Shown: piece after piece, positions 3 through 53,627 of the stretch
Layout of the letters: each line of letters opens with the position of its first letter
Position numbering within the stretch: position 1 is the first letter of the stretch
Source: a virus
Reading direction: 5' to 3' (one strand)
DNA length: 64,000 nt
IMG/VR virus record: IMGVR_UViG_3300034101_003554
Coordinates: 64,001 to 128,000 of that record
Program-made: the position numbers and the translations under genes
Notes under the pieces: model-generated
What the model saw: only the letters and a program-made list of their open reading frames with translations
Databases searched by the model: none
What the model was told of the DNA's origin: nothing

Positions 3-125
3 ACTAATACAACAACAATTGATTCATCAATACCAAATGTATATGATACAATTGCAAAAAGTATATTTCCTGTTAATGAAGAAAAACTTTTTGAAAATAT
101 AAATCGAATAAAACAATTATTTTAA
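3..125 (+). CDS. 3' end of a gene truncated by the window (…LFENINRIKQLF*), putative head-associated protein
   Basis: Open frame from 3 to TAA at 123-125; C-terminus nearly identical in pattern to the next ORF (EEVNRIKQLMK). Confidence 0.75.
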   Translation, partial: TNTTTIDSSIPNVYDTIAKSIFPVNEEKLFENINRIKQLF

Positions 126-126
126 T

Positions 127-690
127 ATGAAAATTAGTACTTCAAACAGATTACAAAAACTTAGCGCGCAAGTAGCTGCTTGTACGCCTGTTAAAGATAG
201 TAATATTATTTCACCTATTAGTGGTGTAATTGAGAATGTTACAGATAAATCAATTAAAATTAATTATAGTTCATCAGATTGTAAATTTTCAGTAATTATT
301 AATCATTTTACCCCAGATAAAAATATACATATAAATGATAATGTAGAGGAAGGTGATGAGATTGGTAAGGCCACAGGAGAACAAATAAAATTATCGATTA
401 AAAAAGGACTATATTCAAACGAAAATATTGATTCATATTTATCAGGAGAATATTGTCCAAGTAAAAAAACCTCAACAGACAATAAAACAAGTTCAGGTAC
501 TAATAAAAAAGAAACTACAGATGATTTAGGAATTATGAACCCATACAAAGTTGCTGCATTACCTTTTCTTGGACTTCAAAAAGGTGCTAAAGCTATTATG
601 CGTTTTGTTCCTGGACTAAGTACTGAGAGTGAGGAAGAAATAACGAATATTGTTGAAGAAGTTAACAGAATAAAGCAACTAATGAAATAA
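127..690 (+). CDS. Degenerate M23-peptidase-like (hybrid-motif) protein, probably non-catalytic
   Basis: IISPISGVI…H…NVEEGDEIGKA resembles the M23 fold; the HxxxD and HxH zinc ligands are absent. Confidence 0.5.
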   Translation: MKISTSNRLQKLSAQVAACTPVKDSNIISPISGVIENVTDKSIKINYSSSDCKFSVIINHFTPDKNIHINDNVEEGDEIGKATGEQIKLSIKKGLYSNENIDSYLSGEYCPSKKTSTDNKTSSGTNKKETTDDLGIMNPYKVAALPFLGLQKGAKAIMRFVPGLSTESEEEITNIVEEVNRIKQLMK

Positions 691-725
691 AAAAATCCCC
701 ATTTCAATTAAGAGTGGGGATTTTT
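691..725. terminator. Bidirectional intrinsic terminator
   Basis: AAAAATCCCCATTT…AGAGTGGGGATTTTT between convergent genes. Confidence 0.8.
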
Positions 726-740
726 AGTTAGAAATTAAAA

Positions 741-905
741 TTATTTCTCAACTTTTGCAGAATCAACAGATGGTGTTGTTACTGTAGTTGTTTCAACTTT
801 AGTTGAATCTTCAGTTGATTTAACTTCTTCAGTTTTAGTTTGTGATTCACAAGATGTGAAAATAGCACCAAGTACCAATGCTGCTCCAAAAATTACTTTT
901 TTCAT
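741..905 (-). CDS. Small lipoprotein (54 aa; start corrected to ATG at 905)
   Basis: MKKVIFGAALVLGAIFTS-C lipoprotein signal; T/E/K-rich body with DST and DSA; TTGACT-17-TATTTA upstream (979-951). Confidence 0.75.
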   Translation of the reverse strand: MKKVIFGAALVLGAIFTSCESQTKTEEVKSTEDSTKVETTTVTTPSVDSAKVEK

Positions 906-1031
906 TTTTTTTCTTTGTTTTAAAATTGATTTGTTATTTTTTATAGACAATAAATAGATAATAATTCCAAAGAAGTCAAATAGTTTTAACATTTTTTTAA
1001 AAAAAATATACTTATAAATAAAACATAAAAT

Positions 1032-1385
1032 ATGAATTGGAAACACACCCTAATTATTGTGGTATCAATATTATTGATTGGGATTATTTTGGGTTATATG
1101 ATGAATACAAATCATCAAGATAACAAGAAATTACAACAACAAATTATTGATGCAGAAAAGAAAGCCATAGATTCTCTATATAAAAAATTGGACATAATGA
1201 AATCTGAGAGAGAAAAAATGGAATCCCAGTTGGATATCTTAACTACAAACATTCAAATGAGTGAAAGTAATCTAACATCAAAAATAAACCAATTAAAAAT
1301 TCAAAACAATGTTAAGATTGACGCTATTATTAATAGTTCTAATGACCAGCTCCTGGATGGTTTACGCACAAGGTTTAACCAATAA
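1032..1385 (+). CDS. N-terminally anchored membrane coiled-coil protein (i-spanin-like topology)
   Basis: Single N-terminal hydrophobic helix then heptad-rich region; 3' end overlaps the next gene. Confidence 0.5.
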   Translation: MNWKHTLIIVVSILLIGIILGYMMNTNHQDNKKLQQQIIDAEKKAIDSLYKKLDIMKSEREKMESQLDILTTNIQMSESNLTSKINQLKIQNNVKIDAIINSSNDQLLDGLRTRFNQ

Positions 1386-1800: not shown

Positions 1801-1853
1801 GTTTATTATATTTTTTAGGTCTTCGGACATAAAAAATTAAATAATTTATTATT

Positions 1854-2669: not shown

Positions 2670-4040
2670 ATGGATTATTCTAATAACGATATATTGTTTG
2701 AAAATGACAAATACTTGGCCATTAAATCTCCAAATATGGAAGAGGGTTTAAAAGTAGGTCCAGAATTCTTAACAACAACAAGACATGGTAAAGATGTCTA
2801 TAATAATAGAACAGTATACTTTTTCATTAATAAAGAAGAAAAAGATACTAGATATGGAATTATAACTCTAGCATTTGGAGAATATTTTGAAGTCTATGAT
2901 AATTATGGCGATGATATTCAATTAAGGGATGCTTTCCATTATTTTCCAGATTTAGATAAAACAATTACAGACATAGTCGGTAATGTTGATTTAATAACAA
3001 CATTAATCTTGATTGAGCAGGGGAAAGAATTTGATAAATATAAATTACAGAGGATAGATTCTAATATTGATTATATACAATATAATAAAAAAGTACCAGC
3101 TAATAGTAAAATTTATTTAGAATTTAATGGTGACGCAGGTATTTTGAGTTTAATGGATTTTAATAGTGATGATCTTTATTATATTAATGCTGTTTTAAGT
3201 AGATATGGATATAGTTCTAATTTATGGGAAGGAGATACAGATTACGATTGGAAAGAAGGTAATTTATTACATTATTTTAATGATGGAAGTAATAAACTTT
3301 TGGATAAAATTGTTTCATATATTAAACCTGAATTTTTTAATTGGAGGGATGATTATAATATAAAGGGTGAATTATGTGAATTATTATATAATCAATTTGA
3401 TAATGAAATAAGTAGAATACTAGACGATTATAGTAATCATTATGAACAAGCTGGGATTAATGCACTAAAAGAAGAATTATATAGTGATTTTTGTAATCCA
3501 TTTGATGGATATCAAATACATGTTGTTAAAAGAAATGAAATAGTTAGATGTTTTTATGAATATCGTACTTGGGTTTCACAATTAAAAGATTTATTAATCG
3601 CGACTAATACTAGTACTATTGAAGAGTTGATAACAAAATTATCTGAGTTCGTTGGTGGTGGTTTAAGAACTGAGATTTACGAGTATCCATATCGTGGTGA
3701 ATTTGACACAGAATCTTTTAATAGAGAAGTTGAATACGAACTTGAAAATATAATTGATAAGATTGAAGAAAATCCTGAAAAATATTCCAAGAATCTTAGT
3801 GAGAATTTAAAATTAATACAAATAATTAAAAAGTATCAATTGAATACTCCTGTCAAAATTGATGATGAAAGAGGTTCATTTATTATCACAGGAATTAAAG
3901 ATGGAAAACTTCTTGTAACACACATTAAAAAGAATGGTGAAAAAACAAACAAGAGTTTCAATTTTGAAGAATTTAATAATTTTATGTCAATGGGTGAATT
4001 ATTTGAACATTTAGTTAGAAAATTAAAAAGAATGTTGTAA
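2670..4040 (+). CDS. Hypothetical acidic phage protein (start corrected to ATG 2670)
   Basis: Long ORF; ATATTTAT at 2646-2653; ends LFEHLVRKLKRML. Confidence 0.75.
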   Translation: MDYSNNDILFENDKYLAIKSPNMEEGLKVGPEFLTTTRHGKDVYNNRTVYFFINKEEKDTRYGIITLAFGEYFEVYDNYGDDIQLRDAFHYFPDLDKTITDIVGNVDLITTLILIEQGKEFDKYKLQRIDSNIDYIQYNKKVPANSKIYLEFNGDAGILSLMDFNSDDLYYINAVLSRYGYSSNLWEGDTDYDWKEGNLLHYFNDGSNKLLDKIVSYIKPEFFNWRDDYNIKGELCELLYNQFDNEISRILDDYSNHYEQAGINALKEELYSDFCNPFDGYQIHVVKRNEIVRCFYEYRTWVSQLKDLLIATNTSTIEELITKLSEFVGGGLRTEIYEYPYRGEFDTESFNREVEYELENIIDKIEENPEKYSKNLSENLKLIQIIKKYQLNTPVKIDDERGSFIITGIKDGKLLVTHIKKNGEKTNKSFNFEEFNNFMSMGELFEHLVRKLKRML

Positions 4041-4865: not shown

Positions 4866-4893
4866 AAAAAAGGGACTATTCAGTCCCTTTTTT
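4866..4893. terminator. Bidirectional terminator overlapping the clpC stop codon
   Basis: AAAAAAGGGACT-ATTC-AGTCCCTTTTTT. Confidence 0.8.
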
Positions 4894-7061: not shown

Positions 7062-7496
7062 ATGAACGGAAAAGATTTTCATAAAAGATTCGAGGAATTT
7101 TTCAATCAATTTTTCAATCAAGACAATCAAAAATTTAATACGCCTATGGATGGATTTTTAAAAGCATTAAATCCAGATGACATTTCAAAAGAAATGAAGA
7201 AATATAGAAAATCGATTAAAGAATCTAATGATGGGTTATTTACAACTATTAGTTTCATTTTTACTAATCCACCATTTAGTGATAAGAGTGAAGCTAATGA
7301 GTTGAAATCTAAATTAGATGAATGTGTATCAAATCAAGATTTTGAGGAAGCAGCAAGATTAAGAGATAAAATTAAAGAACTTGAAAATAACTCATCTAAG
7401 GTTAAAGATTTGAAAAAAGAGTTAGATATTGCAATTAAAGAACAAAATTTTGAAAGGGCAATTGAAATCCGAGATGAATTAAAAAAAATAAACTAA
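7062..7496 (+). CDS. Protein with two tandem UVR (UvrB/UvrC, McsA-like) coiled-coil motifs
   Basis: LDECVSNQDFEEAARLRDKIKEL and LDIAIKEQNFERAIEIRDELKK. Confidence 0.88.
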   Translation: MNGKDFHKRFEEFFNQFFNQDNQKFNTPMDGFLKALNPDDISKEMKKYRKSIKESNDGLFTTISFIFTNPPFSDKSEANELKSKLDECVSNQDFEEAARLRDKIKELENNSSKVKDLKKELDIAIKEQNFERAIEIRDELKKIN

Positions 7497-12712: not shown

Positions 12713-14083
12713 ATGAAAAGAATTTTGTATGAAGCCCCAATTGATGATTTTATCAGTAAAGAATCAATGGAAAAAATAAACGTGGCTCAAATTAGAAAAT
12801 ATAATACCAACAAAACTGAAGGTGGTAGTAGCTATGAAATGGGAAATTTAATGCGTGGGTTACCAAATAAGGAAGCACCATACAAAAGACAATTAGTCCA
12901 ATTGGCCATTGATAAATTTTTAGAAAATTTTTATGAGATTAAAGAAAAGATAGACGAGGGATTAGTTTCGTTAGATGTTCAAATTTCAACAACACCAGCC
13001 GCTAGAAGACCTCAAAAAAAGGTTACACCTGAAGAAATAGAGCAAGCACAAAAAAAAGACCCATTATTTAATGAACGAATAAAAGGAAGAAATTTTCAAA
13101 ATGCTATAACACAAGGTAATAGTTGGAATCGTGGTTTTGATTTTGAAAATGATAAAGAATTTTTAGATGATATTGAAGATATTATTAACTATGTTGATTC
13201 AACCCAAGGTGGTGAACGTAACCGTAGATATGACGATGACGATGAGGGATTAGTTGAAAAATATAAAAAATTTGGTAAATCTGCAACAGTTTTTTATAAT
13301 GATAATTTAGCTCAATTGGAGAGTATGGCAAAAAACGCGTCAGGTGTTGCTGCGTATTGTGAAATTGTTAATGACCCAACGAATCCTAAAGCTTATATAT
13401 TAGTAGTTAGAGCCCCTAACTTTCCTTTATTAATGCACGAATTAGAAAAAGTTGGTGAGGATTTTCTAACTTATCTTTATATGTCAAAAGATAAAGTTGT
13501 AAAAGATGCTCTTGTAAAAACAACTGATGTTCATGACCATGAAATAAGAAATATGCTTACAGGAAAACAAATAAGTTTAGGACTTAATTATCATATTAAA
13601 CCTCACATTGATACGGCAATTAATCAATTTATAAAAGAAAAAAGATTACCAACCAATGAAAAAGGAGAAGTAACTGAATCAACTATAAAAAAATATGAAA
13701 GATGGTTATATAATATCATAATCAAAAATTTCAACAAATTGGCAAATGATGAAATATTAATGTATAATATGATTATGTATGATGGTATTATTGATGGAAA
13801 GAATAAAGTTAAATTTGAAGGTGAAATGGTAAATCCAATGGAATATTTTGATGAATTTATTGAAATGATTATATATGGTGGAGATGGAAATAAAGGTGCT
13901 GTTGATGTTTTACCAATAATGCAAACAACAACGAGAACAACAACGAGAACAACAACGACAACAACAACTCAAAAATATGAACCTCCAACTTATGATTTTG
14001 ATGACGAAGATGATGATGATGATGATGAACCTCCAACAGATGATATTGATGACGAAGATGGAGAAAGATGGTGGGAAGATTAA
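12713..14083 (+). CDS. Hypothetical protein with Thr-rich and Asp-rich tail
   Basis: 456-aa ORF starting MKRILYE. Confidence 0.75.
   Translation: MKRILYEAPIDDFISKESMEKINVAQIRKYNTNKTEGGSSYEMGNLMRGLPNKEAPYKRQLVQLAIDKFLENFYEIKEKIDEGLVSLDVQISTTPAARRPQKKVTPEEIEQAQKKDPLFNERIKGRNFQNAITQGNSWNRGFDFENDKEFLDDIEDIINYVDSTQGGERNRRYDDDDEGLVEKYKKFGKSATVFYNDNLAQLESMAKNASGVAAYCEIVNDPTNPKAYILVVRAPNFPLLMHELEKVGEDFLTYLYMSKDKVVKDALVKTTDVHDHEIRNMLTGKQISLGLNYHIKPHIDTAINQFIKEKRLPTNEKGEVTESTIKKYERWLYNIIIKNFNKLANDEILMYNMIMYDGIIDGKNKVKFEGEMVNPMEYFDEFIEMIIYGGDGNKGAVDVLPIMQTTTRTTTRTTTTTTTQKYEPPTYDFDDEDDDDDDEPPTDDIDDEDGERWWED
13925..13969 (+). repeat. In-frame 12-bp/ACA tandem repeat encoding TTTRTTTRTTTTTTT
   Basis: ACAACAACGAGA twice, then an ACA run. 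Confidence 0.8.
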
Positions 14084-18000: not shown

Positions 18001-18714
18001 ATGAATTTTGGTTCAATTAAATCAAAAATAGAAAAATTACTTTCGGAGTCTTATTCAAAACAAGAATTAAAACTTGATATGAAAGTATTTAAAACTTTAG
18101 TTTTAGAAAATAAAAATATTAGTAAGTTATTTTATTTATACGATGAGTTAAGTAGTAACAAGGGTATGAGTGAAACTATTGTGAATGATTACATTAATGA
18201 ATGTATCATTATGTATGAAAATATAATAAATAAAATATCTAAAAAAGATTTAAACCAATTAAAATTGTGGGTTTCAGATATTAAATCTGATAATAAATAT
18301 GAAAAAATTGATAATTTGTTTGAGACAAATATTTTCAAATTAGAACATAAAATTTTAAGTAGAAAATTAATTGCAGAATCTCTTAAAAAATCTAACAAAG
18401 AATCAAAAGAAGTTATTAATTTACCAATAAGTACGATGATAAATTTGGCAAACAAAACTATCAATAATTATATTGGTAATATGAATGAATCAGAGAAAGA
18501 AGAACTATCTAAGTTATTAAAGATAGATGAAAAAGATATAAAAGATTCATATCTAAACATTAAAGAAAATGTTTTAGATAAATTAAATAAATTGTTAATT
18601 GACTCCGATACAGAAACATCTGAAAAAATTAGTGAATCAATTTCAAAAATTAAAGATGAGAAATTTGATAAACTAAATTATTACAGATTAAAATCACTTA
18701 ATGATAGTATTTAA
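18001..18714 (+). CDS. Hypothetical head-module protein
   Basis: Helical ORF after the portal; ATATTTAT at 17938-17945. Confidence 0.75.
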   Translation: MNFGSIKSKIEKLLSESYSKQELKLDMKVFKTLVLENKNISKLFYLYDELSSNKGMSETIVNDYINECIIMYENIINKISKKDLNQLKLWVSDIKSDNKYEKIDNLFETNIFKLEHKILSRKLIAESLKKSNKESKEVINLPISTMINLANKTINNYIGNMNESEKEELSKLLKIDEKDIKDSYLNIKENVLDKLNKLLIDSDTETSEKISESISKIKDEKFDKLNYYRLKSLNDSI

Positions 18715-19482: not shown

Positions 19483-20202
19483 ATGGACTTAAAAATAATT
19501 AAACCTGGAGAAATTGGTAAGGGAATTTTAATTGAATATGATGCAGGTTATGTATCACCAAGAACTGAACATAATTCATTTATATTAGAACAAAAATCTT
19601 ATTTAGACCATTCCAAACCATTTGAATTCTACGCTGTATTACAAAAATATAATACACCAAATCGTAATGGTAGAATTTATCCAGAAAAGATATTAAAGAG
19701 AGAAGCCGAGAATTATAAAAAGATAATTCAAAAAGGAACATCTTTATCTGAATTAAATCACCCAGAATCATCTTTAATTGACCTTGATAGAGTATCTCAT
19801 ATCATAAATGAAGTTTGGTGGGAAGGTCCTATATTAATGGGTAAACTCAAATTATTAACATCACCAGGATTCCACGAAAGAGGTATAGTATCAACTAAAG
19901 GTGATATGGCGGCAAATTATTTAAGACAAGGTGTTACCCTTGGTATTTCTTCTCGTGGAGTTGGTTCGTTAAAAAAAGTTGGTGAGCAAAATGAAGTCCA
20001 AGATGATTTTGAATTAATTTGTTTTGATTTGGTTTCTTCACCATCAACACCTGGTGCTTATCTTTTCTTAAATAAAGATGATAAACATATGTATGAAGAA
20101 AATCTTGAAGAAGAGAAAAAAATGTCAATAGAAAGAAATGTTGGTGATAGTGGTAATAAATCACTTGATTTAATGAAAAAATTGTCTAAACTTGGGTATT
20201 AG
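19483..20202 (+). CDS. Prohead core protease (T4 gp21-like)
   Basis: NRNGRIYP, ELNHP, GISSRGVGS, FDLVSSPSTPGA. Confidence 0.95.
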   Translation: MDLKIIKPGEIGKGILIEYDAGYVSPRTEHNSFILEQKSYLDHSKPFEFYAVLQKYNTPNRNGRIYPEKILKREAENYKKIIQKGTSLSELNHPESSLIDLDRVSHIINEVWWEGPILMGKLKLLTSPGFHERGIVSTKGDMAANYLRQGVTLGISSRGVGSLKKVGEQNEVQDDFELICFDLVSSPSTPGAYLFLNKDDKHMYEENLEEEKKMSIERNVGDSGNKSLDLMKKLSKLGY

Positions 20203-20609: not shown

Positions 20610-22205
20610 ATGACAGAAAAAAAATCATTAGTAGAAGAAGCGATAATCCAAATGAAAAATTTGGAGGAATTAGTCGCTGAAAATGCAAAAGGAATACTTG
20701 CGTCAACAATGACAAAAGAAATCAAACAACTAGTAAAAGAATCTCTTAACGAACAAGATGAAGACGAAGAAGAAGTTGAAGATGAAGAAGAAATTGAAGA
20801 CGAAGAAGACATAAACATGGGTGACGAAATGGATATGGAAGACGAAATGGATATGGAAGACGAAATGGATATGGATGATGAAATGGATGGTATGAGTCAA
20901 GTGCAGATGGGGGACGATAAAACCTTAGACTTGACAAATATGGATACAGATTCTGTTGTCAAGATTTTTTCAGCATTAGATAGTGAAACTGAAGTTGAAG
21001 TCATTCCTGACCAACAAAAAGGTAAAGTGCATTTTAAAGATAAACGCACAAATAAAGAATATATTGTTATGTCAGAAAGCGAAATTGAAAGAGAAGTTAC
21101 TAGTGCAATACATGATACTTTTTCTGAAAGTGATTACATTGACGATGAAGAAGATTTTGACTTCATTCCTGAATACGAAGAAGATGAAGAAGAAGATTTT
21201 GACTTCATTCCTGAATACGAAGAAGATGAAGAAGAAGAATTTGATTTTCCTAAAGAGGAAGAAGGTTTTGAAAGTTCTTATGGAATCCAATACGAAGATG
21301 AAACTTTATACGAAATTGAAATGGAAGACGGAATGGACATGATGGAAATGGACAATGAGATGGATATGATGGAAATGGATATGGAAGATGAAACTTTATA
21401 CGAAATTGAAATGGAAGAAGACGATGAAGACTTTGAAAGTGATGAGTATATGATGGAATCAAAAAAATCAACAAAAAAACCAAAAGGTATGGGTTTTGGT
21501 TCAGCATCTAAATTCAAATTTCCAAGTAAAACTACTGATTACCCAACTAAAAAACAAAAACAAGGCACTAAAGGTGTAGGTATGGGTAAAGGTCCTAAAA
21601 AAGACATATATAAATCTGACTCTCCAAGTTTTGATGGTGAATTCTCTAAGAAACCAACCAAATCAAAAGAAACAAAAGGAAGTATGATGATGAAGCCTAA
21701 AAAAGTAGAAACAAAAGAGGCCGCACGTACTTTAGGAAACGGAAAATATTGGGGTAGAGATGGTCTTCCAAAACCAAGAACAGCTCCTCGTCATCTAAGA
21801 AATGAATCTGTTGAGTCTCAAGAATTAAATTTACTTAGAGAAAAAAACGAAGAGTACAGAAAAGCATTAAACATTTTTAGAACTAAACTTGATGAAGTAG
21901 CAATCTTTAATTCAAACTTAGCGTACGCAACTAGATTATTTACAGAACATTCTACATCAAAACAAGAAAAAATTAACATTCTACAAAGATTTGATGGTGT
22001 TGAAACTCTTAAAGAATCTAAAAATCTTTACAAAGTAATTAAAGACGAATTATCGAACACTAAGACTCAACAAGTTAATGAATCAATTGAAAGAACTATT
22101 ACGAAGACACCTTCTACCGGTTCTGCAATTAATTTAATTGAATCAAAAACATATGAAAATCCACAATTCTTAAGAATGAAGGATTTAATGTCAAAATTAA
22201 AATAA
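20610..22205 (+). CDS. Prohead scaffold/core protein (gp22-like position)
   Basis: Between protease and capsid genes; acidic D/E/M tracts, Lys-rich block, C-terminal coiled coil; many [IL]xE sites. Confidence 0.8.
   Translation: MTEKKSLVEEAIIQMKNLEELVAENAKGILASTMTKEIKQLVKESLNEQDEDEEEVEDEEEIEDEEDINMGDEMDMEDEMDMEDEMDMDDEMDGMSQVQMGDDKTLDLTNMDTDSVVKIFSALDSETEVEVIPDQQKGKVHFKDKRTNKEYIVMSESEIEREVTSAIHDTFSESDYIDDEEDFDFIPEYEEDEEEDFDFIPEYEEDEEEEFDFPKEEEGFESSYGIQYEDETLYEIEMEDGMDMMEMDNEMDMMEMDMEDETLYEIEMEEDDEDFESDEYMMESKKSTKKPKGMGFGSASKFKFPSKTTDYPTKKQKQGTKGVGMGKGPKKDIYKSDSPSFDGEFSKKPTKSKETKGSMMMKPKKVETKEAARTLGNGKYWGRDGLPKPRTAPRHLRNESVESQELNLLREKNEEYRKALNIFRTKLDEVAIFNSNLAYATRLFTEHSTSKQEKINILQRFDGVETLKESKNLYKVIKDELSNTKTQQVNESIERTITKTPSTGSAINLIESKTYENPQFLRMKDLMSKLK
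21147..21251 (+). repeat. 42-bp in-frame tandem repeat (two perfect copies plus a partial)
   Basis: GAAGAAGATTTTGACTTCATTCCTGAATACGAAGAAGATGAA at 21147 and 21189; also 18-bp repeats near 20823-20885 and a ~35-bp duplication at 21295/21385. Confidence 0.9.
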
Positions 22206-22241: not shown

Positions 22242-24089
22242 ATGGGAGCATTATTAGAAAGCGGTCTTGTTGGTAACATTGGTTTAAAACACCTTAAAGT
22301 TATCAAAGAAGATACTATTAACAAATGGGATAGATTAGGATTCCTTGATGGCCTTAGAGGTCACCTAAAAGAAAATGTTGCACAGTTATATGAAAACCAA
22401 GCATCATTCTTAATCAATGAGGCAACAGCTGATGGAAGTTCTGGTTCATTCGAAACAGTTGTATTTCCAATCGTTAGACGTGTATTCTCTAAATTATTAG
22501 CAAATGATATCGTATCTGTACAAGCTATGAACTTACCTATCGGTAAATTGTTCTACTTCGTACCTAAAATCCAAGGTTATAATGGTGGTGGTAATACCAA
22601 TTCTGGTGAACATTACGGTCCGTTTGGCGCTCCAGGAGGTCCTAGTGAAGTAAACGCAGGTTATGGTGATAGTGCTGGAGCTTATCAAAAAAATCTTTAT
22701 GATTTATTTTACGAAGGTAATGAACCTAGTTTAAATCCTGCCGGATTATTTGATTATTCTAAAGGTCAATGGTCTGCGATTACAACTGGTACAACAGTTC
22801 AAGTTTGGAGTAATGGTCTATTAACAGGTGCTACAGATCAATTTACAGCTAACACTACTATCAGAAAAGTAATCGTTAAACTTTGTAATTTCACTAACTT
22901 AGGTGTTGGTAAACTTATTGCTCCTGATGGTAATGAAATTGACACAGAATCTTTCTTGTCTGATTTGAAGCTTATGGCGACTAGCGCTAAAAGTGAATCA
23001 GCATTCTCATCAGATACTTGTGATGCAATATACAATGTCGATGGAAGTAAAAAATCATTATTGTTTAGAGTTGTAACTCAACAATATGGTAAAGGTATTG
23101 TTTCTCCAACATCAACACCAAATAAAACTACATGGGCTTCTAATGGTGGTGGTGGAACATTCAATGACATTTGTGGTCAAGATGGTTGTATCTATTTAGA
23201 AGTTGACCTTTCTTGTCCAGTATGTGCAACTTGTGATAATTCTAACACAATTGATGGTTACACTGGTACAACTTTAACAAGTACTTTATCTGGAGACGCT
23301 TTCACAGCTGTTTGGAGAAGATACGAAGAACTTGAATTCGAAGATAAAATTGGTGAAGTTTCTTTCGACCTTGAATCAGTAACTGTTTCTGTAACTGAAA
23401 GAAAACTTAGAGCTCAATGGTCTCCTGAACTTGCTCAAGACGTTGCAGCATTCCATAACATTGATGCTGAAGCTGAATTGACGGCTCTTCTTTCTGAACA
23501 AGTTGCTGCTGAAATCGATAGAGAAATCCTTCGTGACCTTAGAAAAGGTGCGGCTTGGAACTTGAGATGGGACTACAACGGATGGAGAAGAATTCAAAAT
23601 ACAACTTCTTACACTCAAAAAGACTGGAACCAAACGTTGATTACTGCTATCAACCAACTTTCAGCTCAAATTCACAAATCAACTCTTAGAGGTGGTGCTA
23701 ACTGGATTGTTGTTTCTTCTGAGGTTTCTGCAATCTTTGATGACTTGGAATACTTCCACGTATCAAATGCTTCTCCTGAGCAAGACCAATACAACATGGG
23801 TATTGAAAGAGTAGGTACATTAGCTGGTAGATACCAAGTATATCGTGACCCTTACTTCCCACCTAACCAAGTGTTAATCGGACATAAAGGTACATCACTT
23901 CTTGATACTGGTTACATCTACGCTCCGTATGTTCCACTTCAATTAACTCCAACAATGTATAATCCATTCAACTTTACTCCTATTAAGGGTATTATGACAC
24001 GTTACGCCAAAAAAATGGTGAACAACAGATTTTATGCCAGAATTACAGTTGATGGTGTTAGAACATTTGACTTACAAGAATTGAGATAG
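22242..24089 (+). CDS. Major capsid protein (T4 gp23-like) with Cys-rich insertion
   Basis: IVRRVF, VSVQAMNLPIG, RKLRAQWSPELAQD, DAEAELTALLSEQVAAEIDREI, GYIYAPYVPL, GIMTRYA; optimised codon usage. Confidence 0.97.
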   Translation: MGALLESGLVGNIGLKHLKVIKEDTINKWDRLGFLDGLRGHLKENVAQLYENQASFLINEATADGSSGSFETVVFPIVRRVFSKLLANDIVSVQAMNLPIGKLFYFVPKIQGYNGGGNTNSGEHYGPFGAPGGPSEVNAGYGDSAGAYQKNLYDLFYEGNEPSLNPAGLFDYSKGQWSAITTGTTVQVWSNGLLTGATDQFTANTTIRKVIVKLCNFTNLGVGKLIAPDGNEIDTESFLSDLKLMATSAKSESAFSSDTCDAIYNVDGSKKSLLFRVVTQQYGKGIVSPTSTPNKTTWASNGGGGTFNDICGQDGCIYLEVDLSCPVCATCDNSNTIDGYTGTTLTSTLSGDAFTAVWRRYEELEFEDKIGEVSFDLESVTVSVTERKLRAQWSPELAQDVAAFHNIDAEAELTALLSEQVAAEIDREILRDLRKGAAWNLRWDYNGWRRIQNTTSYTQKDWNQTLITAINQLSAQIHKSTLRGGANWIVVSSEVSAIFDDLEYFHVSNASPEQDQYNMGIERVGTLAGRYQVYRDPYFPPNQVLIGHKGTSLLDTGYIYAPYVPLQLTPTMYNPFNFTPIKGIMTRYAKKMVNNRFYARITVDGVRTFDLQELR

Positions 24090-27012: not shown

Positions 27013-27906
27013 ATGATAAATAAAATAAAAGATATAGTCAAACAAATTTTAAAAGAGGCTACAAGTAATTTAACAGGTAGTAGAGGTTCGTTTGTACCCC
27101 CACTTAGACAAGGTAAAAAAAATTTTGAGAAAACTCAATTAGACCCATATAGTGAGTCTGTATCAAAGTATTATAGTCAAGAATTAGCGACAGATAGTTA
27201 TGATGGTAAAATGTCAACATCCAAGAAGGACATCAAAAAAATTGAATCTAAGGTAAAAAAAACTTCAATCTATGCCAAGAATCATCCAGTGCAGAATGAT
27301 GACGATGGTGAGGTAATTAACCCCTATCCAAAGGGTAAATCAAAGAAAATAAATGAGGCGACATTTGGATATGGTGGGGAATATAATGCACCACTTGAGA
27401 TTGGGATGAAAAAATGGAAAAACCCTGAATTACAACCATTTTCAGATTTTGTTGATACTGAAGCAAATATAAATAAAGTTAAGTCAACAACCAAAAACAA
27501 TATAAGAAGAACTGTTGGAATGTGGGAGAAAGGGAAGGATGGTAGTTATAAAATTGATAAACATTATGTCCATACGGTTAATGAGTGGGATTATGAAGAA
27601 GCTCCAATATTAACTGAAGATTTGGCTGTATGGTTTGGAACAAAGAAAAAACCCAAGGGGTCATCACAACCAAAAGGACCTTGGGTTAATATCTGTAAAA
27701 AGGTAGATGGAAAACATCCCCCTTGTGGAAGGAGTGAGGCAGATACCAAGAGTTACCCCAAATGTAGGGCAGCAGGAGTTGCTGGTAAGATGTCAGATTC
27801 TGAGAAGAAATCGGCTTGCGCTCAGAAACGTAGGGCTGAAAAGAAAGACCCCAAAATTGGTACTGGTAACAAACCAACAATGACTTCTTATAAACCTAAG
27901 AAATAA
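27013..27906 (+). CDS. Hypothetical head-associated protein with C-terminal basic Cys/Trp domain
   Basis: LAVWF…WVNIC…CGR…YPKCR; LKE/INE/VNE/LTE sites. Confidence 0.7.
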   Translation: MINKIKDIVKQILKEATSNLTGSRGSFVPPLRQGKKNFEKTQLDPYSESVSKYYSQELATDSYDGKMSTSKKDIKKIESKVKKTSIYAKNHPVQNDDDGEVINPYPKGKSKKINEATFGYGGEYNAPLEIGMKKWKNPELQPFSDFVDTEANINKVKSTTKNNIRRTVGMWEKGKDGSYKIDKHYVHTVNEWDYEEAPILTEDLAVWFGTKKKPKGSSQPKGPWVNICKKVDGKHPPCGRSEADTKSYPKCRAAGVAGKMSDSEKKSACAQKRRAEKKDPKIGTGNKPTMTSYKPKK

Positions 27907-28423: not shown

Positions 28424-28894
28424 TTAACAATAAGGTGGTGAACATTTCTTTTTACCATCTAATCCCTTGAATCTACCCTGACACACTTGTACAGCAAACG
28501 CATTAGAATATGCTGAGGGATAGACCTTATATTTAGCTTTTGCAGCTTTATATCCTCTTGAACATAATTCAGTTCCAGTTTTCTTTTTTCCCTCCATCAT
28601 AACCACATCTTCTTCCTCATCATAGAATTCATCAGAATGTTTAGTTTCATTCATCATAAAGTCAAATACTTGGTCTAGGTTTTCTTTTGCCGTTGCAATA
28701 TGGTCATCAGCCCAATCGTGACCACCTTGAAGTATTTTTTCAACTTGCATTGGGTCTAATTCTAATAACAATTGTGCTTGTCTTATCATTTGTTCAAGAT
28801 TACTGAAAAACATATAGTTTTGTACTTTTCCATAATCTTTTTCGTTAACTATTTTTTTAACTAGATTGTTAAGTTGTGATTCTGTAATTCTCAT
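28424..28894 (-). CDS. Hypothetical head-associated protein with YPSAY domain
   Basis: N-terminal MRITESQLNNLVKKIVNE; C-terminal AAKAKYKVYPSAYSNAFAVQVC. Confidence 0.7.
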   Translation of the reverse strand: MRITESQLNNLVKKIVNEKDYGKVQNYMFFSNLEQMIRQAQLLLELDPMQVEKILQGGHDWADDHIATAKENLDQVFDFMMNETKHSDEFYDEEEDVVMMEGKKKTGTELCSRGYKAAKAKYKVYPSAYSNAFAVQVCQGRFKGLDGKKKCSPPYC

Positions 28895-38867: not shown

Positions 38868-38925
38868 TTATTTAAAAATTTGTTTAATCTTAAAATAAAT
38901 GACTTTTTGGGTAAGTAAAATAATC

Positions 38926-39717: not shown

Positions 39718-39743
39718 AATGTTTTTTTTATTTAAAAATTTTA

Positions 39744-40370: not shown

Positions 40371-40384
40371 ATTAATATATTTTT

Positions 40385-41437: not shown

Positions 41438-41439
41438 AT

Positions 41440-46324: not shown

Positions 46325-46890
46325 TAGTGTCTAACATTATACATTACTTCAGGAGTAATTACAAATTTATTTGATTGTTTTTTAAGTTCTGTCAAAAAAT
46401 CAAAATCTTCACCATCTCTGTTTTGAGAAAAAAACAACTCCTTAAAAATAGTTTTTTTGTAACAGAAAGAAATACCAACTGTTGCAAATTTTAATTCATT
46501 TAAATGAAATGGGGGTAAAACTAAGCCATTTTCATATGCCATTCTCCAAACAACAAAATCATACTTATTATATTTTTCAAATAATATTTTTACATAATTT
46601 TTGTCAATACTATCATCATCATCCAAAAAACCAATCCATTCAGTATCAACTAATTTTATACCTTCATTACGTACTAAACCTGATTGACCATTGTTAGGTC
46701 CGATTAAGCCTGTTTTTTCTATTTTAATTGTTTTGACTCTATCATCATCAAATGATTCACCATCTACACCATCATAAACAACAATAGCTTTCCAATTTGG
46801 CACAGATTGTTGTACTAAAGATTCTATAGTTCTTTTAAGTGTTGGTCTATTTAATGATGGTATTATAAATGTTATATTATTCTCAATCAT
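46324..46890 (-). CDS. GT2 glycosyltransferase
   Basis: ITFIIPS, RNEGI, WIGFLDDDD, GEDFDF. Confidence 0.88.
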   Translation of the reverse strand: MIENNITFIIPSLNRPTLKRTIESLVQQSVPNWKAIVVYDGVDGESFDDDRVKTIKIEKTGLIGPNNGQSGLVRNEGIKLVDTEWIGFLDDDDSIDKNYVKILFEKYNKYDFVVWRMAYENGLVLPPFHLNELKFATVGISFCYKKTIFKELFFSQNRDGEDFDFLTELKKQSNKFVITPEVMYNVRH

Positions 46891-46891
46891 A

Positions 46892-48403: not shown

Positions 48404-48990
48404 ATTCCAGTTGAGCCAAATCCATTTGAGTTTCTATCTTTATCTTCAATATTTGAAACTTCTTCAAAGTTAATCCATTTCCCATTAAGAACAGGACAAA
48501 CAACCGCTTGAGCAATTTTCATTCCTTTTGATATTTGATATGGATATTGATTTGTATTAAATATAATAACTTTTATCATACCATTATATCCACTATCAAT
48601 AGTTCCTGGAGAGTTTAAAACCATAAGACCTTCATTTATTGCCAAACCACTTTTTGTTCTAATTTGGATTTCATATCCATCTGATATGTCAAAATAAAGT
48701 CCAGTTGGAATTAAAGCCCTACCAAGAGGTTCAATTGTCATATCAATGGTTGAATACAAATCAAACCCTGAATCTGTTGGGTAATTATAAATGGGGTGAT
48801 TAATTGCTATATCGTCACGTTTAAATCTCAATAATAGTCTAGGGTCAGGATTCATCATTTTATCTTCTAATTCCTGTAAATCCAATCCAGCTTCATTAAA
48901 CAATCTATCTAAGTCAATTTCACCATTTTCGTCAGTGTTTAAGTTTCCTTGTAGTTTTTTTATATTTCCATATAATTCAAATAAATCCAT
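48400..48990 (-). CDS. dut: Trimeric dUTPase with N-terminal extension
   Basis: SGFDL, QIRTKSGLA, NSPGTIDSGYNG, KIAQ, RNSNGFGSTG. Confidence 0.93.
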   Translation of the reverse strand: MDLFELYGNIKKLQGNLNTDENGEIDLDRLFNEAGLDLQELEDKMMNPDPRLLLRFKRDDIAINHPIYNYPTDSGFDLYSTIDMTIEPLGRALIPTGLYFDISDGYEIQIRTKSGLAINEGLMVLNSPGTIDSGYNGMIKVIIFNTNQYPYQISKGMKIAQAVVCPVLNGKWINFEEVSNIEDKDRNSNGFGSTGI

Positions 48991-48991
48991 A

Positions 48992-49702
48992 CTATTTCAA
49001 TTCTTTTAATTTTTTAATTATTTCTATTAATACATTTACATCTTTTTCACAATATTCTTTTATTCCTTCCAAGTTTTGTTTTTCCCAATATTCATTATGA
49101 ACATTCTGACCAATTACTTCACCATTCTTTGGTGTCTCAACTCCAATATTTGAACATAACAAATCCAAAGAACCAATAGATGTATAAGCACCATATTGCC
49201 AAATTTCTTTGGTATCAATGGCTTTTATTTCCCAAGGTTTGGTATCATAAGAAGGTAATATTGATGGTGGCATTAAACCATTGATAATCATACGTTTTGC
49301 CAACATTGGAATGTCAAAATTTTTGAGGTTATGACCACACAACCAAAAATCAAGTTTCCCACATTTAATTAATAATTTTTGAACATCTAACAAAAGTTTA
49401 TGTTCGTCATTACCATAAAATGTTTGTTTTCTAACTGATTCATCATCCAAGACAAATGCAAAACTTATACAGATAATTTTAGCAAACTCAGGTACAAGTC
49501 CAGTTCTTGTTCTAAAGACATCATTTTTTTTGTCGTATTGAATATGAGAATCTTCAGGAAATCTTTTTAAGAACCAATCAAAATATTTATCAAATTGGTC
49601 AGCAACAGATGGATTCAATGTTGAACATACATCATAGTTTGGACAACACCCAACGGTTTCAATGTCCATAAAAAGAATCTTAGTTATTGGTTGTTTAATC
49701 AT
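48992..49702 (-). CDS. 3'-5' exonuclease (PolB exonuclease-like, DEDD)
   Basis: FMDIETV, GHNLKNFDIP, YCEKDV. Confidence 0.88.
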   Translation of the reverse strand: MIKQPITKILFMDIETVGCCPNYDVCSTLNPSVADQFDKYFDWFLKRFPEDSHIQYDKKNDVFRTRTGLVPEFAKIICISFAFVLDDESVRKQTFYGNDEHKLLLDVQKLLIKCGKLDFWLCGHNLKNFDIPMLAKRMIINGLMPPSILPSYDTKPWEIKAIDTKEIWQYGAYTSIGSLDLLCSNIGVETPKNGEVIGQNVHNEYWEKQNLEGIKEYCEKDVNVLIEIIKKLKELK

Positions 49703-49706
49703 AATT

Positions 49707-50921
49707 TTATTTTATTAATGTTTTGTACCATTCAGCTCTAGTCTTAGTTACATTTCTTAAATCGTACTTGTCTTTAACACTCTCGTACAATCTTTCCCCA
49801 AGGTCGGTAATATAATTGGGATTATAAACTAAAGTCTTAATATATTTTGCCCAATCACTATGATTTCTATTTTCATGAACCAAAAGAGCATTACCATCAC
49901 CAAAAATACCATTTTTCATTGTATGTTTCAAATCAATAGTGTAAGGACCTACTTCAGATGCAATTAAAGCTTTTTTATAAAATCCAGCCTCAATAACTTT
50001 TAATTGTGACTTAACCCTATTAAAAATATGGTTTTTAATTGGGGCCATTGAAATATCAAACTTGGAATAATTTGTTGCGTAAGTATTAATATGTTTTGTC
50101 CAAACACGTCTATAAGGTAATGCTGTTGGATTTGGATATTCTTCATCTTTAAATTGATTTAAAAAGTTTTTATAACCTTCGTCAATAATTGAATAATTGT
50201 TTGTGAAAATTTCTTCATATCTAACCCATACAGTTTCTTCAGGTTTAATTGGCCTTTGTTTTCTTTCCCCAGTTGTTTGGTTTATTTCAGTCACCGAACC
50301 TCTAATATCAAAACCACATAAGACATATTGAACTTTGTCTTTCAAATTTGCATTCTTACCAACAAATCCCTCCAATAACTTTAAGTCGTGAAGATGTGAA
50401 GAACCACCTAACCATCCAACTCTAACTCTTCCAGATTCTTCTGTAGGTTGATTAAATTGGGGTTCGGTAGGGTTAATTGCATTAGGTAATACCACAACAT
50501 TCCTATTTAATTTTCTTATCTCATCCGCAAAGATACTTGTAGTTGTTGTAACATAACTTGCGACTTTTAAGTTCGCCATAATCTTTTCGTGTATCTTATC
50601 TTGAACAATCAATGAATGTATTGGGTGTTCTTTTCCAGGTAGCCAATAATCATCCAAATCTACAATAACAACAATACCAAGTGATTTTAAAAAATTAATT
50701 AAGGTTGGGGTCTGTTCATAAGTGTGTCCAATATTTCTATGAATATGAACAATTTGATATTGTTTCCAATAATTAACATTATTAATCTGTGGTTGATAAT
50801 CTATATCCACATGAAAGTCATCTGGATACATATTTTGTAACATAACATGGGGATCTACAGAACGAAATTTTCCTACACCGGTTGTGTCACTTGGGAGTAC
50901 AAGTACTTTTATTTTTGACAT
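49707..50921 (-). CDS. Glycosyltransferase, GT-B
   Basis: DLDDYW, VLPNAI, VGWLGGSSH, DISMAP…FNRVKSQLKVIEAG. Confidence 0.85.
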   Translation of the reverse strand: MSKIKVLVLPSDTTGVGKFRSVDPHVMLQNMYPDDFHVDIDYQPQINNVNYWKQYQIVHIHRNIGHTYEQTPTLINFLKSLGIVVIVDLDDYWLPGKEHPIHSLIVQDKIHEKIMANLKVASYVTTTTSIFADEIRKLNRNVVVLPNAINPTEPQFNQPTEESGRVRVGWLGGSSHLHDLKLLEGFVGKNANLKDKVQYVLCGFDIRGSVTEINQTTGERKQRPIKPEETVWVRYEEIFTNNYSIIDEGYKNFLNQFKDEEYPNPTALPYRRVWTKHINTYATNYSKFDISMAPIKNHIFNRVKSQLKVIEAGFYKKALIASEVGPYTIDLKHTMKNGIFGDGNALLVHENRNHSDWAKYIKTLVYNPNYITDLGERLYESVKDKYDLRNVTKTRAEWYKTLIK

Positions 50922-50983: not shown

Positions 50984-51030
50984 AAAAAAACGAAACCCCA
51001 CACTTTGAATTTCTTCAGGGAATGTGGGGA
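50984..51030 (-). terminator. Intrinsic terminator separating late genes from the glycosylation operon
   Basis: CCCCACATT…TGAA-GAAA-TTCA…AGTGTGGGG then TTTCGTTTTTTT. Confidence 0.7.
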
Positions 51031-51054
51031 ATAAGAATTTTAAATTTATAAAAT

Positions 51055-51675
51055 CTATTTAACTTTTTTAATACGAGTTACTTTACCTTCAAATATATGA
51101 CTACCTACTCTAAATTGAAATACATCATTTGATTTACTTGTACTTTCAACTAGTAACCCATTTTCACCTAACACTTCCTCAATAGTTTCTCTAATCATAT
51201 CTTTCAATGTATTCTTATCAACATTTAAACCAGTATTTTGAGGTTTTGTATATTCTTGGATTGGTTGTTTTTGTTTTTTAAATGGGTCAACATTATTAGC
51301 GACATCATTTTTCATTAACCTTGATGCTTTTTCAATTAAATCATTACTTAATACTGAAGAACCACCCATACTTGTTGGTTGAGCTATTGGGTGTTCAATC
51401 ATTAAACGTTTAATTTCATCAGGTAATTTTGATGCCATTATTCTATCCTTAGTTGGAACTTCATTATTTTGTCTAATTGGTGTTTGAGCTTCCATCATAT
51501 ATTCTTGAGGAATATTAAATTTTGCTTGAGGTACGTCAAACTCTTTAACATCAGTATCGTAATTATACGTTTGTTGGTTTGTATTTCTTGGTGTGGCGTT
51601 ATGTCTATCCATAATTTTTTTGGATATTGCCAATTTATTTAATAAATCATTTTCATTCATATTATTCTGTATCAA
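51055..51675 (-). CDS. Hypothetical protein
   Basis: 206-aa ORF; SKLPDEIKRLMIEHPI. Confidence 0.75.
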   Translation of the reverse strand: MIQNNMNENDLLNKLAISKKIMDRHNATPRNTNQQTYNYDTDVKEFDVPQAKFNIPQEYMMEAQTPIRQNNEVPTKDRIMASKLPDEIKRLMIEHPIAQPTSMGGSSVLSNDLIEKASRLMKNDVANNVDPFKKQKQPIQEYTKPQNTGLNVDKNTLKDMIRETIEEVLGENGLLVESTSKSNDVFQFRVGSHIFEGKVTRIKKVK

Positions 51676-52051
51676 ATTTTGCGTTTATTTCTACCCTAGA
51701 CATAGATTTATCACCATTAGGGTTATAATTTGGTCTTGGGGTGTTAAATTTTTCACCTGTTAAAGATATTGAATTTACTCTATCAAGTCTAAATAATCTC
51801 CAACTAGGTAGTGGTTTTTTTCCAATAAAATCTCTATGTGATGCTCCAGTTATATCCCAAGCACGTAGTACGGGATTTCCAGCTTTACTATAACCAAAAC
51901 AAACAGGCTCAATTTCACGTAAACCACGTCCTCCAGGTTCATCACCATCGTAATAAATGACAAGAACATTTTTAGACTTAATAGCATCAATCACACTTTC
52001 AATAGATGCTATTTCTAAGATAAGAGATTTGGTTATATTGTAAAGTTTCAT
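51662..52051 (-). CDS. Stand-alone WYL-domain protein
   Basis: IYY…REIEPVCFG…VLRAW…WRLFRLDRV. Confidence 0.8.
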   Translation of the reverse strand: MKLYNITKSLILEIASIESVIDAIKSKNVLVIYYDGDEPGGRGLREIEPVCFGYSKAGNPVLRAWDITGASHRDFIGKKPLPSWRLFRLDRVNSISLTGEKFNTPRPNYNPNGDKSMSRVEINAKFDTE

Positions 52052-52347
52052 TAAGCACTTGGTGTTGTGTAAGGTGAATTTGGTTTGTATGGATTTCTAA
52101 CAATATTAGAATTTCTTTCTAAGATATCTTTAGATGACCCAGCATTTCTATTGTTCACGTCTAAATCTCCACCAGTTCCTTTACCATATAAATCCCCATC
52201 ACCTATTGCGTCTGGGTTTGTTGCCGAATATTCATTAGCGTTACTTTTGTAATCATTTCTAGTATTTAATGTATTTCTTTGACTATTGGCAATTTCGGTT
52301 AATTTATTATTTGGTTGTGTAATAATTAATGGATCGTAAGTTGGCAT
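52051..52347 (-). CDS. Hypothetical virion protein
   Basis: 98-aa N/G/D-rich ORF in the late operon. Confidence 0.7.
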   Translation of the reverse strand: MPTYDPLIITQPNNKLTEIANSQRNTLNTRNDYKSNANEYSATNPDAIGDGDLYGKGTGGDLDVNNRNAGSSKDILERNSNIVRNPYKPNSPYTTPSA

Positions 52348-52348
52348 A

Positions 52349-52819
52349 TTAAAGTATTTTTTTAATTATTTCATTTATCCTTTTTAAGTCTTCGGTGACT
52401 TGTAAATTATATTTTTCTAATGTATTGCTATGACTTTTTGATGGTCTATTCATATTTGATAAGTTATCTTTTTGATGTGGTGCGTTGTATTGATTAGGTA
52501 AAACAATCGATTTTATTTCTTTACCTAAATCTACATTATTTCTCATTGAATTTAAATTTTGGTTAACCCAATTTTTAACATAATGCCCACCATTAAGAAT
52601 AAATGGTAAATCGTTATCATTTCCTGTAAAATTATCAAAAAAATTTTTCATTCTTTTGAGTTGTTGATACGTTACGTGTCTACTATTTCTTAATTCAATG
52701 TTTCGTCTGTACCCTTCAGTTTTATCATTACTACCTTGGGCGGCATCATAACATTGTTTTAAGTAGCCAACAACTTCTTCAGGGAGCTCAATTTTTTTAC
52801 CGTATAAATCTTTATTCAC
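52349..52819 (-). CDS. Hypothetical head-associated protein
   Basis: Ends VTEDLKRINEIIKKIL. Confidence 0.7.
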   Translation of the reverse strand: MNKDLYGKKIELPEEVVGYLKQCYDAAQGSNDKTEGYRRNIELRNSRHVTYQQLKRMKNFFDNFTGNDNDLPFILNGGHYVKNWVNQNLNSMRNNVDLGKEIKSIVLPNQYNAPHQKDNLSNMNRPSKSHSNTLEKYNLQVTEDLKRINEIIKKIL

Positions 52820-53627
52820 CTTTTTTTAGTATGTTTAATAATTTATCTATACTAATACCTTCTTTCTCGGCCAATTTTTTAATAGATTCCAAATTCTTTA
52901 CAAGAAGTTTACTGATAGGTGTATCTTTTTTTAATATATCGGATTCACCTCTTTTTTTGGTTAACATATCCTCAACCATTTTTATCATTTTTTGTTTTTT
53001 AGCCTCTTGTAATTCTTTCTCAAAAAGATTTAAATTTTTAACTATTGTTTCACCTTTTTTGTTTTTAACAACTTTAGTACTTTTTTTCTTACCAAAATTT
53101 TTAGCTCTTTCCATTCTATTTTCAGAGTCATCAATTCCCATTTTATCTAAAGTTTTTAATGTATCTTTTAAATCTTTAAATTCAGTTTCTTCGTAACCGA
53201 AAGTTTTTTTCATATTAATTTCTTTTAAGTTATCATCATCTTCAATGTTTTCACCATAAAGTCTACGTCCACCACCATATATAAATGTAAGTCCTGGAGT
53301 TCTTGTCGCTTTAATGGTTTGATCCATTGTTTTTTTGGGTGTTAACCATTTATTTAATATTGGTATCCTTGACGATAGAAATGTCCCATCACTATCAACA
53401 AGTTCATCAATTTCACTTTTTGTAACTTTTTTGTTTTTATTTAAAATACTTTGTATTTTTTTTTCTATATTTTTTAAATTTTCTTTCTTAATTCTTTTTT
53501 TGTTTTGACTATTTTTTGATTCTGATATTACACTATATAATGAGTAATTTAGATAAAAATTATCTCCATCACCTTCTAAAAGAAAATAACAATAATCGTT
53601 AAAGTATTCTTTTCTATAATTGTTCAT
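52812..53627 (-). CDS. Hypothetical head-associated protein
   Basis: First gene after the minus-strand GTATTTAT; LLE/ISE/LKE sites. Confidence 0.7.
   Translation of the reverse strand: MNNYRKEYFNDYCYFLLEGDGDNFYLNYSLYSVISESKNSQNKKRIKKENLKNIEKKIQSILNKNKKVTKSEIDELVDSDGTFLSSRIPILNKWLTPKKTMDQTIKATRTPGLTFIYGGGRRLYGENIEDDDNLKEINMKKTFGYEETEFKDLKDTLKTLDKMGIDDSENRMERAKNFGKKKSTKVVKNKKGETIVKNLNLFEKELQEAKKQKMIKMVEDMLTKKRGESDILKKDTPISKLLVKNLESIKKLAEKEGISIDKLLNILKKGE

Follow-up and report, generated by a model that had tools for sequence, protein, structure and literature searches.

A stretch of viral DNA of 64,000 nucleotides (the window, with positions numbered from its first letter), corresponding to bases 64001-128000 of the single 141,041-bp virus record IMGVR_UViG_3300034101_003554, was analyzed together with the rest of that record (the genome). 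The record has 29% G+C and a completeness of about 48% by CheckV, and its source is an uncultured freshwater jumbo phage of the T4 superfamily. Many proteins of this phage and of its relatives share an N-terminal leader, by its sequence a basic amphipathic helix of 15-22 residues, which begins at the start Met, stands on otherwise unrelated proteins and ends in an invariant [ILV]-x-E. This leader is moderately likely to act as a capsid-targeting peptide similar to the capsid-targeting sequence (CTS) of phage T4 and to be removed by the head protease. From this pattern, we infer that the tagged proteins are targeted to the capsid, cleaved and ejected.

The whole-genome list of open reading frames (ORFs) contained many proteins starting like the product of window gene 28424-28894 (hereafter 28894). 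A leader profile was built from 18 such starts, and the genome was searched with it as 2,471 six-frame segments at a cut-off of E<1e-4. Under these conditions, 19 copies were found in the 141 kb, all 19 at an ATG start. Eighteen of them are upstream of the window, within genome positions 1-37.7 kb, and the remaining one, that of 28894, is the window's only full member of the family. Hence, the range 3-53627 in which an earlier note on this DNA had located its terminal tags does hold one full leader and misses the bulk of the family. Four related records (321, 296, 194, and 150 kb) contained 16, 27, 2, and 16 copies, respectively. Over the 1.24 Mb of genome and related DNA, all 74 profile matches begin at a Met, giving 71 distinct leaders. 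The long form reads MKKIIRLTESDLTRIVKRVI-x-E; in the short forms, the sequence is MKIIITESQY-x-x-I-x-E or M-x(2-6)-hh-K-K-hh-x-E (h, hydrophobic). In 69 of the 71 distinct leaders a conserved Thr-Glu anchor is followed by [ILVM]-x-E, with peaks at +13 (40 leaders) and +8 (20 leaders). In 39,664 residues, the core hh-[KRQ]-x-hh-x-E was found seven times with its end at or before residue 27 and at one other place, vs. 0.06 N-terminal copies in shuffled sequences; since this pattern was written after the data had been seen, the contrast between N-terminal and internal positions is the fair control. Besides, synonymous codon differences occur throughout the leader, which indicates that selection acts on the peptide; a DNA-level explanation of the leader was rejected on this ground.

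The same leader was recovered well beyond these records. When residues 1-40 of a long-form protein were used as a database query, 1,604 candidates sharing words with it were returned (90-287 aa), 1,587 having E<=10. All of them lack a Pfam family, and the source names they carry read "hypothetical protein," with a single HAD-hydrolase label as the exception. The best 120 of the 1,604, ranked by likeness to the query, were inspected. All 120 carry the leader, which begins at residue 1 in 118. The residue at P3 is Ile in 119 and that at P1 is Glu in all 120, P2 is the sole variable position (2.6 bits), and information falls below 1 bit three residues past the Glu; the ranking inflates conservation within the leader, while the position of the drop is unaffected. 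The end of the leader matches the L/I-X-E cleavage rule of T4 gp21. Together with the query, these 120 proteins group by body into 60 unrelated clusters (BLAST E<1e-3; median length 159 aa, median isoelectric point, pI, 8.5), i.e., one short N-terminal peptide is common to otherwise unrelated proteins.

In the genome itself, the tagged proteins comprise three leucine-rich-repeat (LRR)-like proteins and one GDSL+PG_binding+SLT protein, the rest being orphans; an NlpC/P60 protein has a hybrid start. Among 38 tagged proteins of relatives, one Phage_lysozyme2 (tail-lysozyme-like) and two DUF6576 matches were obtained, and 35 are without a family. The three LRR-like genes are arranged in tandem at genome 946-3093 (-), with a helix-turn-helix (HTH)-like segment directly after the leader.

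Some less regular occurrences of the leader were also observed. At genome 7865-7963, a 33-aa ORF located just ahead of ORF 7926-8303 carries a perfect long-form leader and then stops, and a truncated copy, MKKIVRLTEFDSI, lies at genome 9004-9042; these two remnants may be decayed or frameshifted tagged genes. The database protein P0005 (255 aa) has two copies of the long leader, one at its start and one mid-protein just after a Met, and probably results from reading two neighbouring tagged genes as a single one. Four otherwise different proteins (24928-24987 (+) in the window; genome 7222 and 17995; L002:2309) have a third short N-terminal motif, E-K-x-R-I-L-x-x-H, at residues 7-11.

Inside the window, the following features bear on the leader:

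28841..28894 (-): leader MRITESQLNNLVKKIVNE of the 156-aa protein 28424-28894; profile E=7.9e-7, ATG start
28424..28840 (-): cargo body of this tagged protein; helical core, hypervariable acidic linker, basic Cys-containing C-terminal domain
27013..27057 (+): short leader MINKIKDIVKQILKE of the 297-aa basic protein 27013-27906; core hh-K-x-hh-x-E
12713..12733 (+): seven-residue leader MKRILYE, then AP, of a 456-aa acidic protein directly upstream of the large terminase gene
51662..52051 (-): WYL-like protein with a weak WYL match from residue 18, not counted as tagged

The four N-terminal examples of the earlier note correspond to these genes, in which, as for all the peptides it quoted, the sequences are present at the ORFs named. 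The 28894 protein is a true profile-defined member of the family. In 23 aligned orthologues, E18 is invariant and P3 is I, L, or V (23/23), the leader is of the long or the short form (8-22 residues), and a variable linker of 3-8 residues precedes the conserved body. In the AlphaFold model, a helix at residues 5-21 stands ahead of a separate, confident helical core. The body matches PHROG 27331 at residues 108-150 and lies beside the capsid gene in relatives (29 matches). The 27013 protein has the family core, and the leaders of its orthologues (14 distinct N-termini shown) vary in length and sequence and yet all end in [IL]-x-E. The residues that follow are AT[SGT] in 12 of the 14 and VTS or MDS in the other two, within a conserved ATS-x-SGSRGS. 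For the 12713 protein, five BLAST matches were obtained; of the four orthologues listed, the three with a recovered N-terminus keep L-x-E↓AP (the arrow marks the position after the Glu), a sample so small that it is suggestive only. The WYL example fared differently: in four orthologues conservation continues unbroken from the N-terminus past the E and into the domain, of which the N-terminus is a part, and this example lends no support to a tag.

The 28894 orthologues display a further conserved position in their residues ~87-105. Glu101, located after the hypervariable acidic linker, is invariant in 23/23 and opens a conserved E-G-[KR]-K-K (one row deviates) before the basic Cys domain, with a Met two residues upstream in most rows. 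This region could be a second processing site.

The reading of the leader as a capsid-targeting peptide calls on a T4-type head module, which is encoded in the window:

14142-15905: large terminase (TerL)
16112-17938: gp20-type portal; PF07230, 3.6e-76
18001..18714 (+): helical 237-aa protein in the portal-protease interval, at the position of T4 gp67/gp68
19483..20202 (+): prohead serine protease of T4 gp21/Peptidase_S77 type; PF03420 E=2.9e-22, PHROG 207 E=2.6e-42
20610..22205 (+): scaffold/core protein candidate of 531 aa, without a family match
22242-24089: whole capsid gene; PF07068
22242..22421 (+): probable capsid propeptide, the first 60 residues, ending LINE↓A
22422..24089 (+): mature gp23-type major capsid protein; PF07068 E=2e-73, PDB T4 gp23 chains E~1e-24

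The module thus contains a gp20 portal, an S77 protease, a scaffold candidate and a gp23 capsid protein. The 19483 gene, named as the protease in the earlier note, was assigned to the T4 gp21 type: its PF03420 match is above the cut-off, it aligns to T4 gp21 (PDB 5jbl, E=1.5e-13), and its catalytic His and Ser motifs, LNHPES and SSRG, stand opposite the corresponding T4 segments. The scaffold candidate was assigned by position and composition; it is placed between the protease and capsid genes, the slot of gp22 in T4, and the gene order is the same in the closest cultured phage, Flavobacterium phage vB_FspM_immuto (head gene order conserved, capsid protein 38% identical). At least 799 relatives of the capsid gene are present in IMG/VR, the best 80 of these being 61-86% identical. 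The 18001-18714 product is a possible core protein, by position only, whose leader would end in LLSE at residue 16; L-x-E is kept at residue 16 in all 14 orthologous N-termini shown (46 matches).

T4 gp21 is described as cutting after L/I-X-E, and a 10-residue CTS as directing the internal proteins to the core (PMC9026906). Several sites of the head module suggest that the protease of the source phage probably follows this rule too. In the capsid protein, five [ILV]-x-E sites fall in the first 60 residues, where 1.45 are expected from its own composition, vs. four in the other 555 (Fisher p=7e-4). By alignment, residue 24 of mature T4 gp23* pairs with residue 68 of the capsid protein. INE↓A is invariant across 45 capsid N-termini, in a segment that is highly conserved as a whole, and the immuto capsid protein has IVSE↓A at the equivalent place. 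The scaffold candidate contains 15 [ILV]-x-E sites, of which LVKE↓SL and NLIE↓SK are invariant in 16 aligned sequences. It consists of a conserved N-terminal helix, a hypervariable acidic middle and a conserved C-terminal domain, and LVKE↓S and LIE↓S flank the middle.

A promoter-like motif, RTATTTAT-N4-AAA, was found 11-32 nt before 41 start codons (142 TATTTAT copies genome-wide, on both strands). It precedes the TerL, portal, protease, scaffold and tail-region genes (e.g., upstream of 14142, 19483, and 20610), and stands directly before 8 of 18 leader genes, seven more being located just downstream in the same runs, as judged by coordinates. None was found before the transferase block or before the dUTPase, PhoH, ClpB, and DnaK genes. 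From this distribution, the motif is taken as a putative late-type promoter. The tagged genes lie in cassettes between a terminator hairpin and this motif.

According to the proposed mechanism, the leader genes would be co-expressed with the head genes, and by virtue of the leader the protein would associate with the scaffold core as this assembles and be enclosed when the gp23-type shell closes. The gp21-type protease (19483-20202) would then cut after the terminal Glu of the leader, as it would at the capsid propeptide LINE↓A and in the scaffold, and the freed cargo would remain in the head and leave with the DNA. This is in line with the T4 system, where the CTS of IPI, IPII, IPIII, and Alt is likewise a short N-terminal peptide that unrelated proteins carry, the phage having a head module of gp20/gp21/gp22/gp23 type. 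The T-even internal proteins are described as diverse, with the CTS alone in common (PMC3012670). Like the leader, the CTS ends hydrophobic-x-Glu in agreement with the gp21 rule (PMC9026906), and cargo genes are variable accessory genes in both systems as far as these are described (PMC3012670, PMC9026906), the database cargo here being small and often basic. The CTS is given as 10 residues (PMC9026906) vs. 15-22 for the leader, and the likeness of the two is one of proposed function. Unlike the T4 system, the present one has an own-genome cargo that is mostly acidic and possible C-terminal versions, and it is known from sequence alone. In T4, only a handful of genes are tagged with the CTS, fewer than the ~16-27 per genome observed here. 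Compared with T4, the longer tag, the number of tagged genes and the use across a large uncultured clade would be new.

Other known systems resemble the present one in part. In the phiKZ-like phages SPN3US, 201phi2-1, and phiKZ, many head proteins are reported to be cut after Glu by a diverged gp21 homologue, some N-terminal propeptides have a short length (20-24 residues), and the protease has a C-terminal propeptide (PMC10052503, PMC9026906). As described there, these propeptides are protein-specific and mostly long (111-254 residues), with a different P3 preference, whereas one portable leader is used here; besides, the source phage is of the gp23/gp20 type and not of the phiKZ type. Searches for the leader elsewhere gave little. 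Using 26 leader residues, tblastn gave no match in 50,697 records of cultured phages, a result that masking of the query by the low-complexity filter may have affected. Submitted alone to the ESM Atlas, the leader gave uninformative results (scores <=0.87, unnamed clusters). In a literature of limited coverage, the strings LTESDL, ITESQL, and TESDLTR led only to unrelated papers, and a search by terms only to work on T4 and SPN3US.

Several observations weigh against a capsid-targeting role of the leader. In some short-form members, conservation runs beyond the Glu into an HTH-like segment, and DUF6576 (PF20216) was matched just past the short-form leader in 2 of the 38 tagged proteins of relatives (one above the cut-off, one slightly below it); the short form may thus belong to a folded domain. 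No DUF6576 match was obtained in the genome at E<=1, and no paper on this family was found within a limited coverage of the literature. The invariant Glu could have another role, e.g., as a helix cap or in a salt bridge. In the AlphaFold model of the 28894 protein, the leader helix has a pLDDT of only ~60 (mean 61.4). The cargo bodies from the database are mostly basic, whereas those of the genome itself are mostly acidic (pI 4.3-5.9 in 16 of 18). Depletion of cut sites might be expected in cargo bodies, because the cargo would sit with the protease, and none was observed (observed/expected [ILV]-x-E: own cargo 1.23, untagged proteins 1.17, database cargo 0.93). The likeness of the tags to a scaffold segment, on which the earlier note had relied, was not borne out by hhalign profile comparison (probability 0.1%), even if the leaders and that segment both end in L-x-E-Q. 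The leader profile found nothing in immuto, so the nearest cultured phage is without the leader. Finally, in SPN3US, 42 head proteins are reported to be packaged uncut (PMC10052503), which means that a leader is not the sole route into a head.

The best-placed alternative, which we regard as rather unlikely, is that the helix functions within the mature proteins, never cut and never capsid-directing: it could dock to a phage or host partner, mediate oligomerisation or, as an amphipathic helix, bind membrane or DNA. The basic and amphipathic character of the helix is consistent with such a role, and C-terminal basic amphipathic helices do target the membrane in MinD and FtsA. The extension of short-form conservation into an HTH-like segment, the two DUF6576 matches and the undepleted cut sites of the cargo argue in the same direction. 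Yet this alternative leaves unexplained why the conserved part ends precisely with an invariant Glu that has I, L, or V at P3 and a free P2, why long and short leaders with the same end are exchanged among orthologues, and why the E↓A type of junction also marks the capsid propeptide; moreover, a promoter motif common with the head genes fits a virion role better.

A leader that addresses another late structure or process, such as the lumen of tail or baseplate, the neck, or the chaperoning or export of cell-wall enzymes, with its removal by the protease being optional, is considered improbable. Peptidoglycan hydrolases are tail-borne in many phages, and they occur among the cargo (GDSL+PG_binding+SLT and NlpC/P60 here, Phage_lysozyme2 in a relative); the genome also encodes ClpB- and DnaK-type chaperones. 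However, the leader is not hydrophobic, and thus is neither a signal nor a signal-arrest-release (SAR) sequence, its [ILV]-x-E end matches a head protease active inside proheads, and the cargo consists mostly of small orphans without a link to the tail.

The least credible explanation, very remote for the leader, invokes DNA-level features or chance in an AT-rich genome (recombination cassettes, start context, composition rich in Lys, Ile, and Glu): the cassettes between hairpin and promoter-like motif would suit it, but the synonymous differences common in the profile-defined leader, the excess of the core motif at N-termini over shuffles and internal positions, and the 1,604 candidates, with the leader in the best 120 and 60 unrelated bodies among 121 proteins, largely refute it for this family. 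Chance does suffice for the looser feature that the earlier note had proposed, a terminal helix next to [ILV]-x-E, which is not above expectation. With 0.019 occurrences per residue, an [ILV]-x-E ends within residues 4-25 of 76 of 150 proteins of at least 80 aa (51%) and falls in the last 25 residues of 58 (39%). For this rule and for the WYL example alone, chance or composition stands as the explanation.

The C-terminal half of the address idea, according to which unrelated proteins end in a similar helix after a cut site, was evaluated on the following features:

87..122 (+): LFE↓NINRIKQLF, end of a 146-aa protein starting upstream of the window; NRIK-motif profile E=0.001
649..687 (+): IVE↓EVNRIKQLMK, end of the 187-aa protein 127-690; NRIK-motif profile E=2e-4
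3999..4037 (+): LFE↓HLVRKLKRML, end of the 456-aa protein 2670-4040
22143..22202 (+): scaffold C-terminal 20-mer SKTYENPQFLRMKDLMSKLK, right after the invariant LIE site
52352..52399 (-): VTE↓DLKRINEIIKKIL, end of the 156-aa protein 52349-52819

Alt and gp21 of T4 are described as undergoing C-terminal processing (PMC9026906). In the source phage, the scaffold ends in LIE↓SKTYENPQFLRMKDLMSKLK, which hardly varies among 35 distinct relatives, and the diverged relative L073 has IRRIKEMMGIVK, near the NRIK motif; the C-terminal helix of the protease, NKSLDLMKKLSKLGY, is also conserved in relatives (62 matches, 14 shown). Short terminal helices serve as shell-interior addresses in the C-terminus of P22 scaffolding protein, the tail of the HK97 protease and the cargo-loading peptides of encapsulins. 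Compared with these, scaffold and protease have conserved C-terminal helices here, and few other proteins end alike. For two of the examples, orthologues keep the end. Those of 52349, at 40-76% identity, all (4/4) have [IV]-T-E, then [DS]-L-[KN]-R-I-N-x-[IL]-[IM]-K-K-[IL]-[IL] and the stop. Among the homologues of 2670-4040 (25-29% identity), ELFE, a basic helix and the stop occur in 2/3, the third having a different, longer end. The 127-690 protein has only two database homologues, with nearly identical C-terminal halves (invariant from residue 132), and none in the four related records; since their ends agree near letter for letter, they provide no independent test of conservation.

The motif E-x-x-N-R-I-K-x-L is common to the 3-125 and 127-690 proteins and occurs in seven copies in ~1.24 Mb of clade DNA. 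As a second large class of tag it was rejected, because over the 1.24 Mb a small profile gave only its seven training copies and weak matches. A database search with its N-terminal form (a GNAT protein, residues 1-40) returned five orthologues only, the C-terminal copies not being searched in this way. A loose C-terminal criterion was passed by 10 of 150 proteins vs. 1.5 in shuffles and 1.2 at internal pseudo-ends, and among the ten are a UVR-motif protein and two enzymes, one IMPDH-like and the other an exonuclease. Besides the conserved ends of 52349 and 2670, the C-terminal tags of the earlier note thus found little backing. The C-terminal half of the address idea is tentative, doubtful rather than likely, and a similar C-terminal helix after a cut site may be used by a few proteins, on the pattern that scaffold and protease appear to follow. 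Of the earlier view that portable tags load cargo into the capsid, it is the N-terminal leader that is supported in silico, with little for the C-terminal helices and nothing for the scaffold likeness or the WYL protein.

A stronger version, a two-ended address code with one type of helix at either terminus, cut at hh-x-E when N-terminal and at a leading I-T-E when C-terminal, is unlikely. Its examples are ITE↓SLKRINEIIKKII in 52349 orthologues and the leader-like KKTIKLTENDLIRIVKKVLVN that ends the 27013 orthologue L021, some orthologues of 27013 bearing extra C-terminal helices, one of them leader-like. If such a code existed, dozens of interchangeable effectors would be loaded and injected per virion in a widespread clade of freshwater jumbo phages, the effectors being taken from well over a thousand clusters of tagged proteins.

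If the N-terminal leader is a capsid address, a simple sequence rule would list the proteins that abundant uncultured lake phages carry into their hosts; the tagged proteins number ~16-27 per genome, and 121 sampled ones represent 60 unrelated families. Such cargo would comprise first-minute effectors, i.e., candidates for take-over, cell-wall-opening or anti-defence factors, nearly all of them lacking a known family. The CTS principle of T4, so far documented in T-even phages, would then operate on a much larger scale and through a longer tag, and the leader would provide a new packaging tag for phage engineering.

Other genes of the phage were noted along with the head module. A gene for ribosomal protein S21 (PF01165, 1.2e-13) lies on the opposite strand at 18716-18901 (-), in the interval from the portal-side genes to the protease. 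A ClpB-like ATPase with two AAA domains is encoded at 4876-6906 (-) (AAA_2 4.7e-68, ClpB_D2-small) and adjoins a small protein with two UVR motifs at 7062-7496 (+), while a DnaK-like gene is found at genome 27182-29041. The 648-aa product of 7814-9760 (+), preceded by a TATTTAT motif, combines a nucleotidyltransferase/SidM_N-like N-terminal part with Peptidase_M23 and PG_binding_1. Finally, a ~15-kb block at 35375-50921 (-) is made up of glycosyltransferase, methyltransferase, and sugar-epimerase genes, with PhoH, dUTPase, and exonuclease genes alongside.

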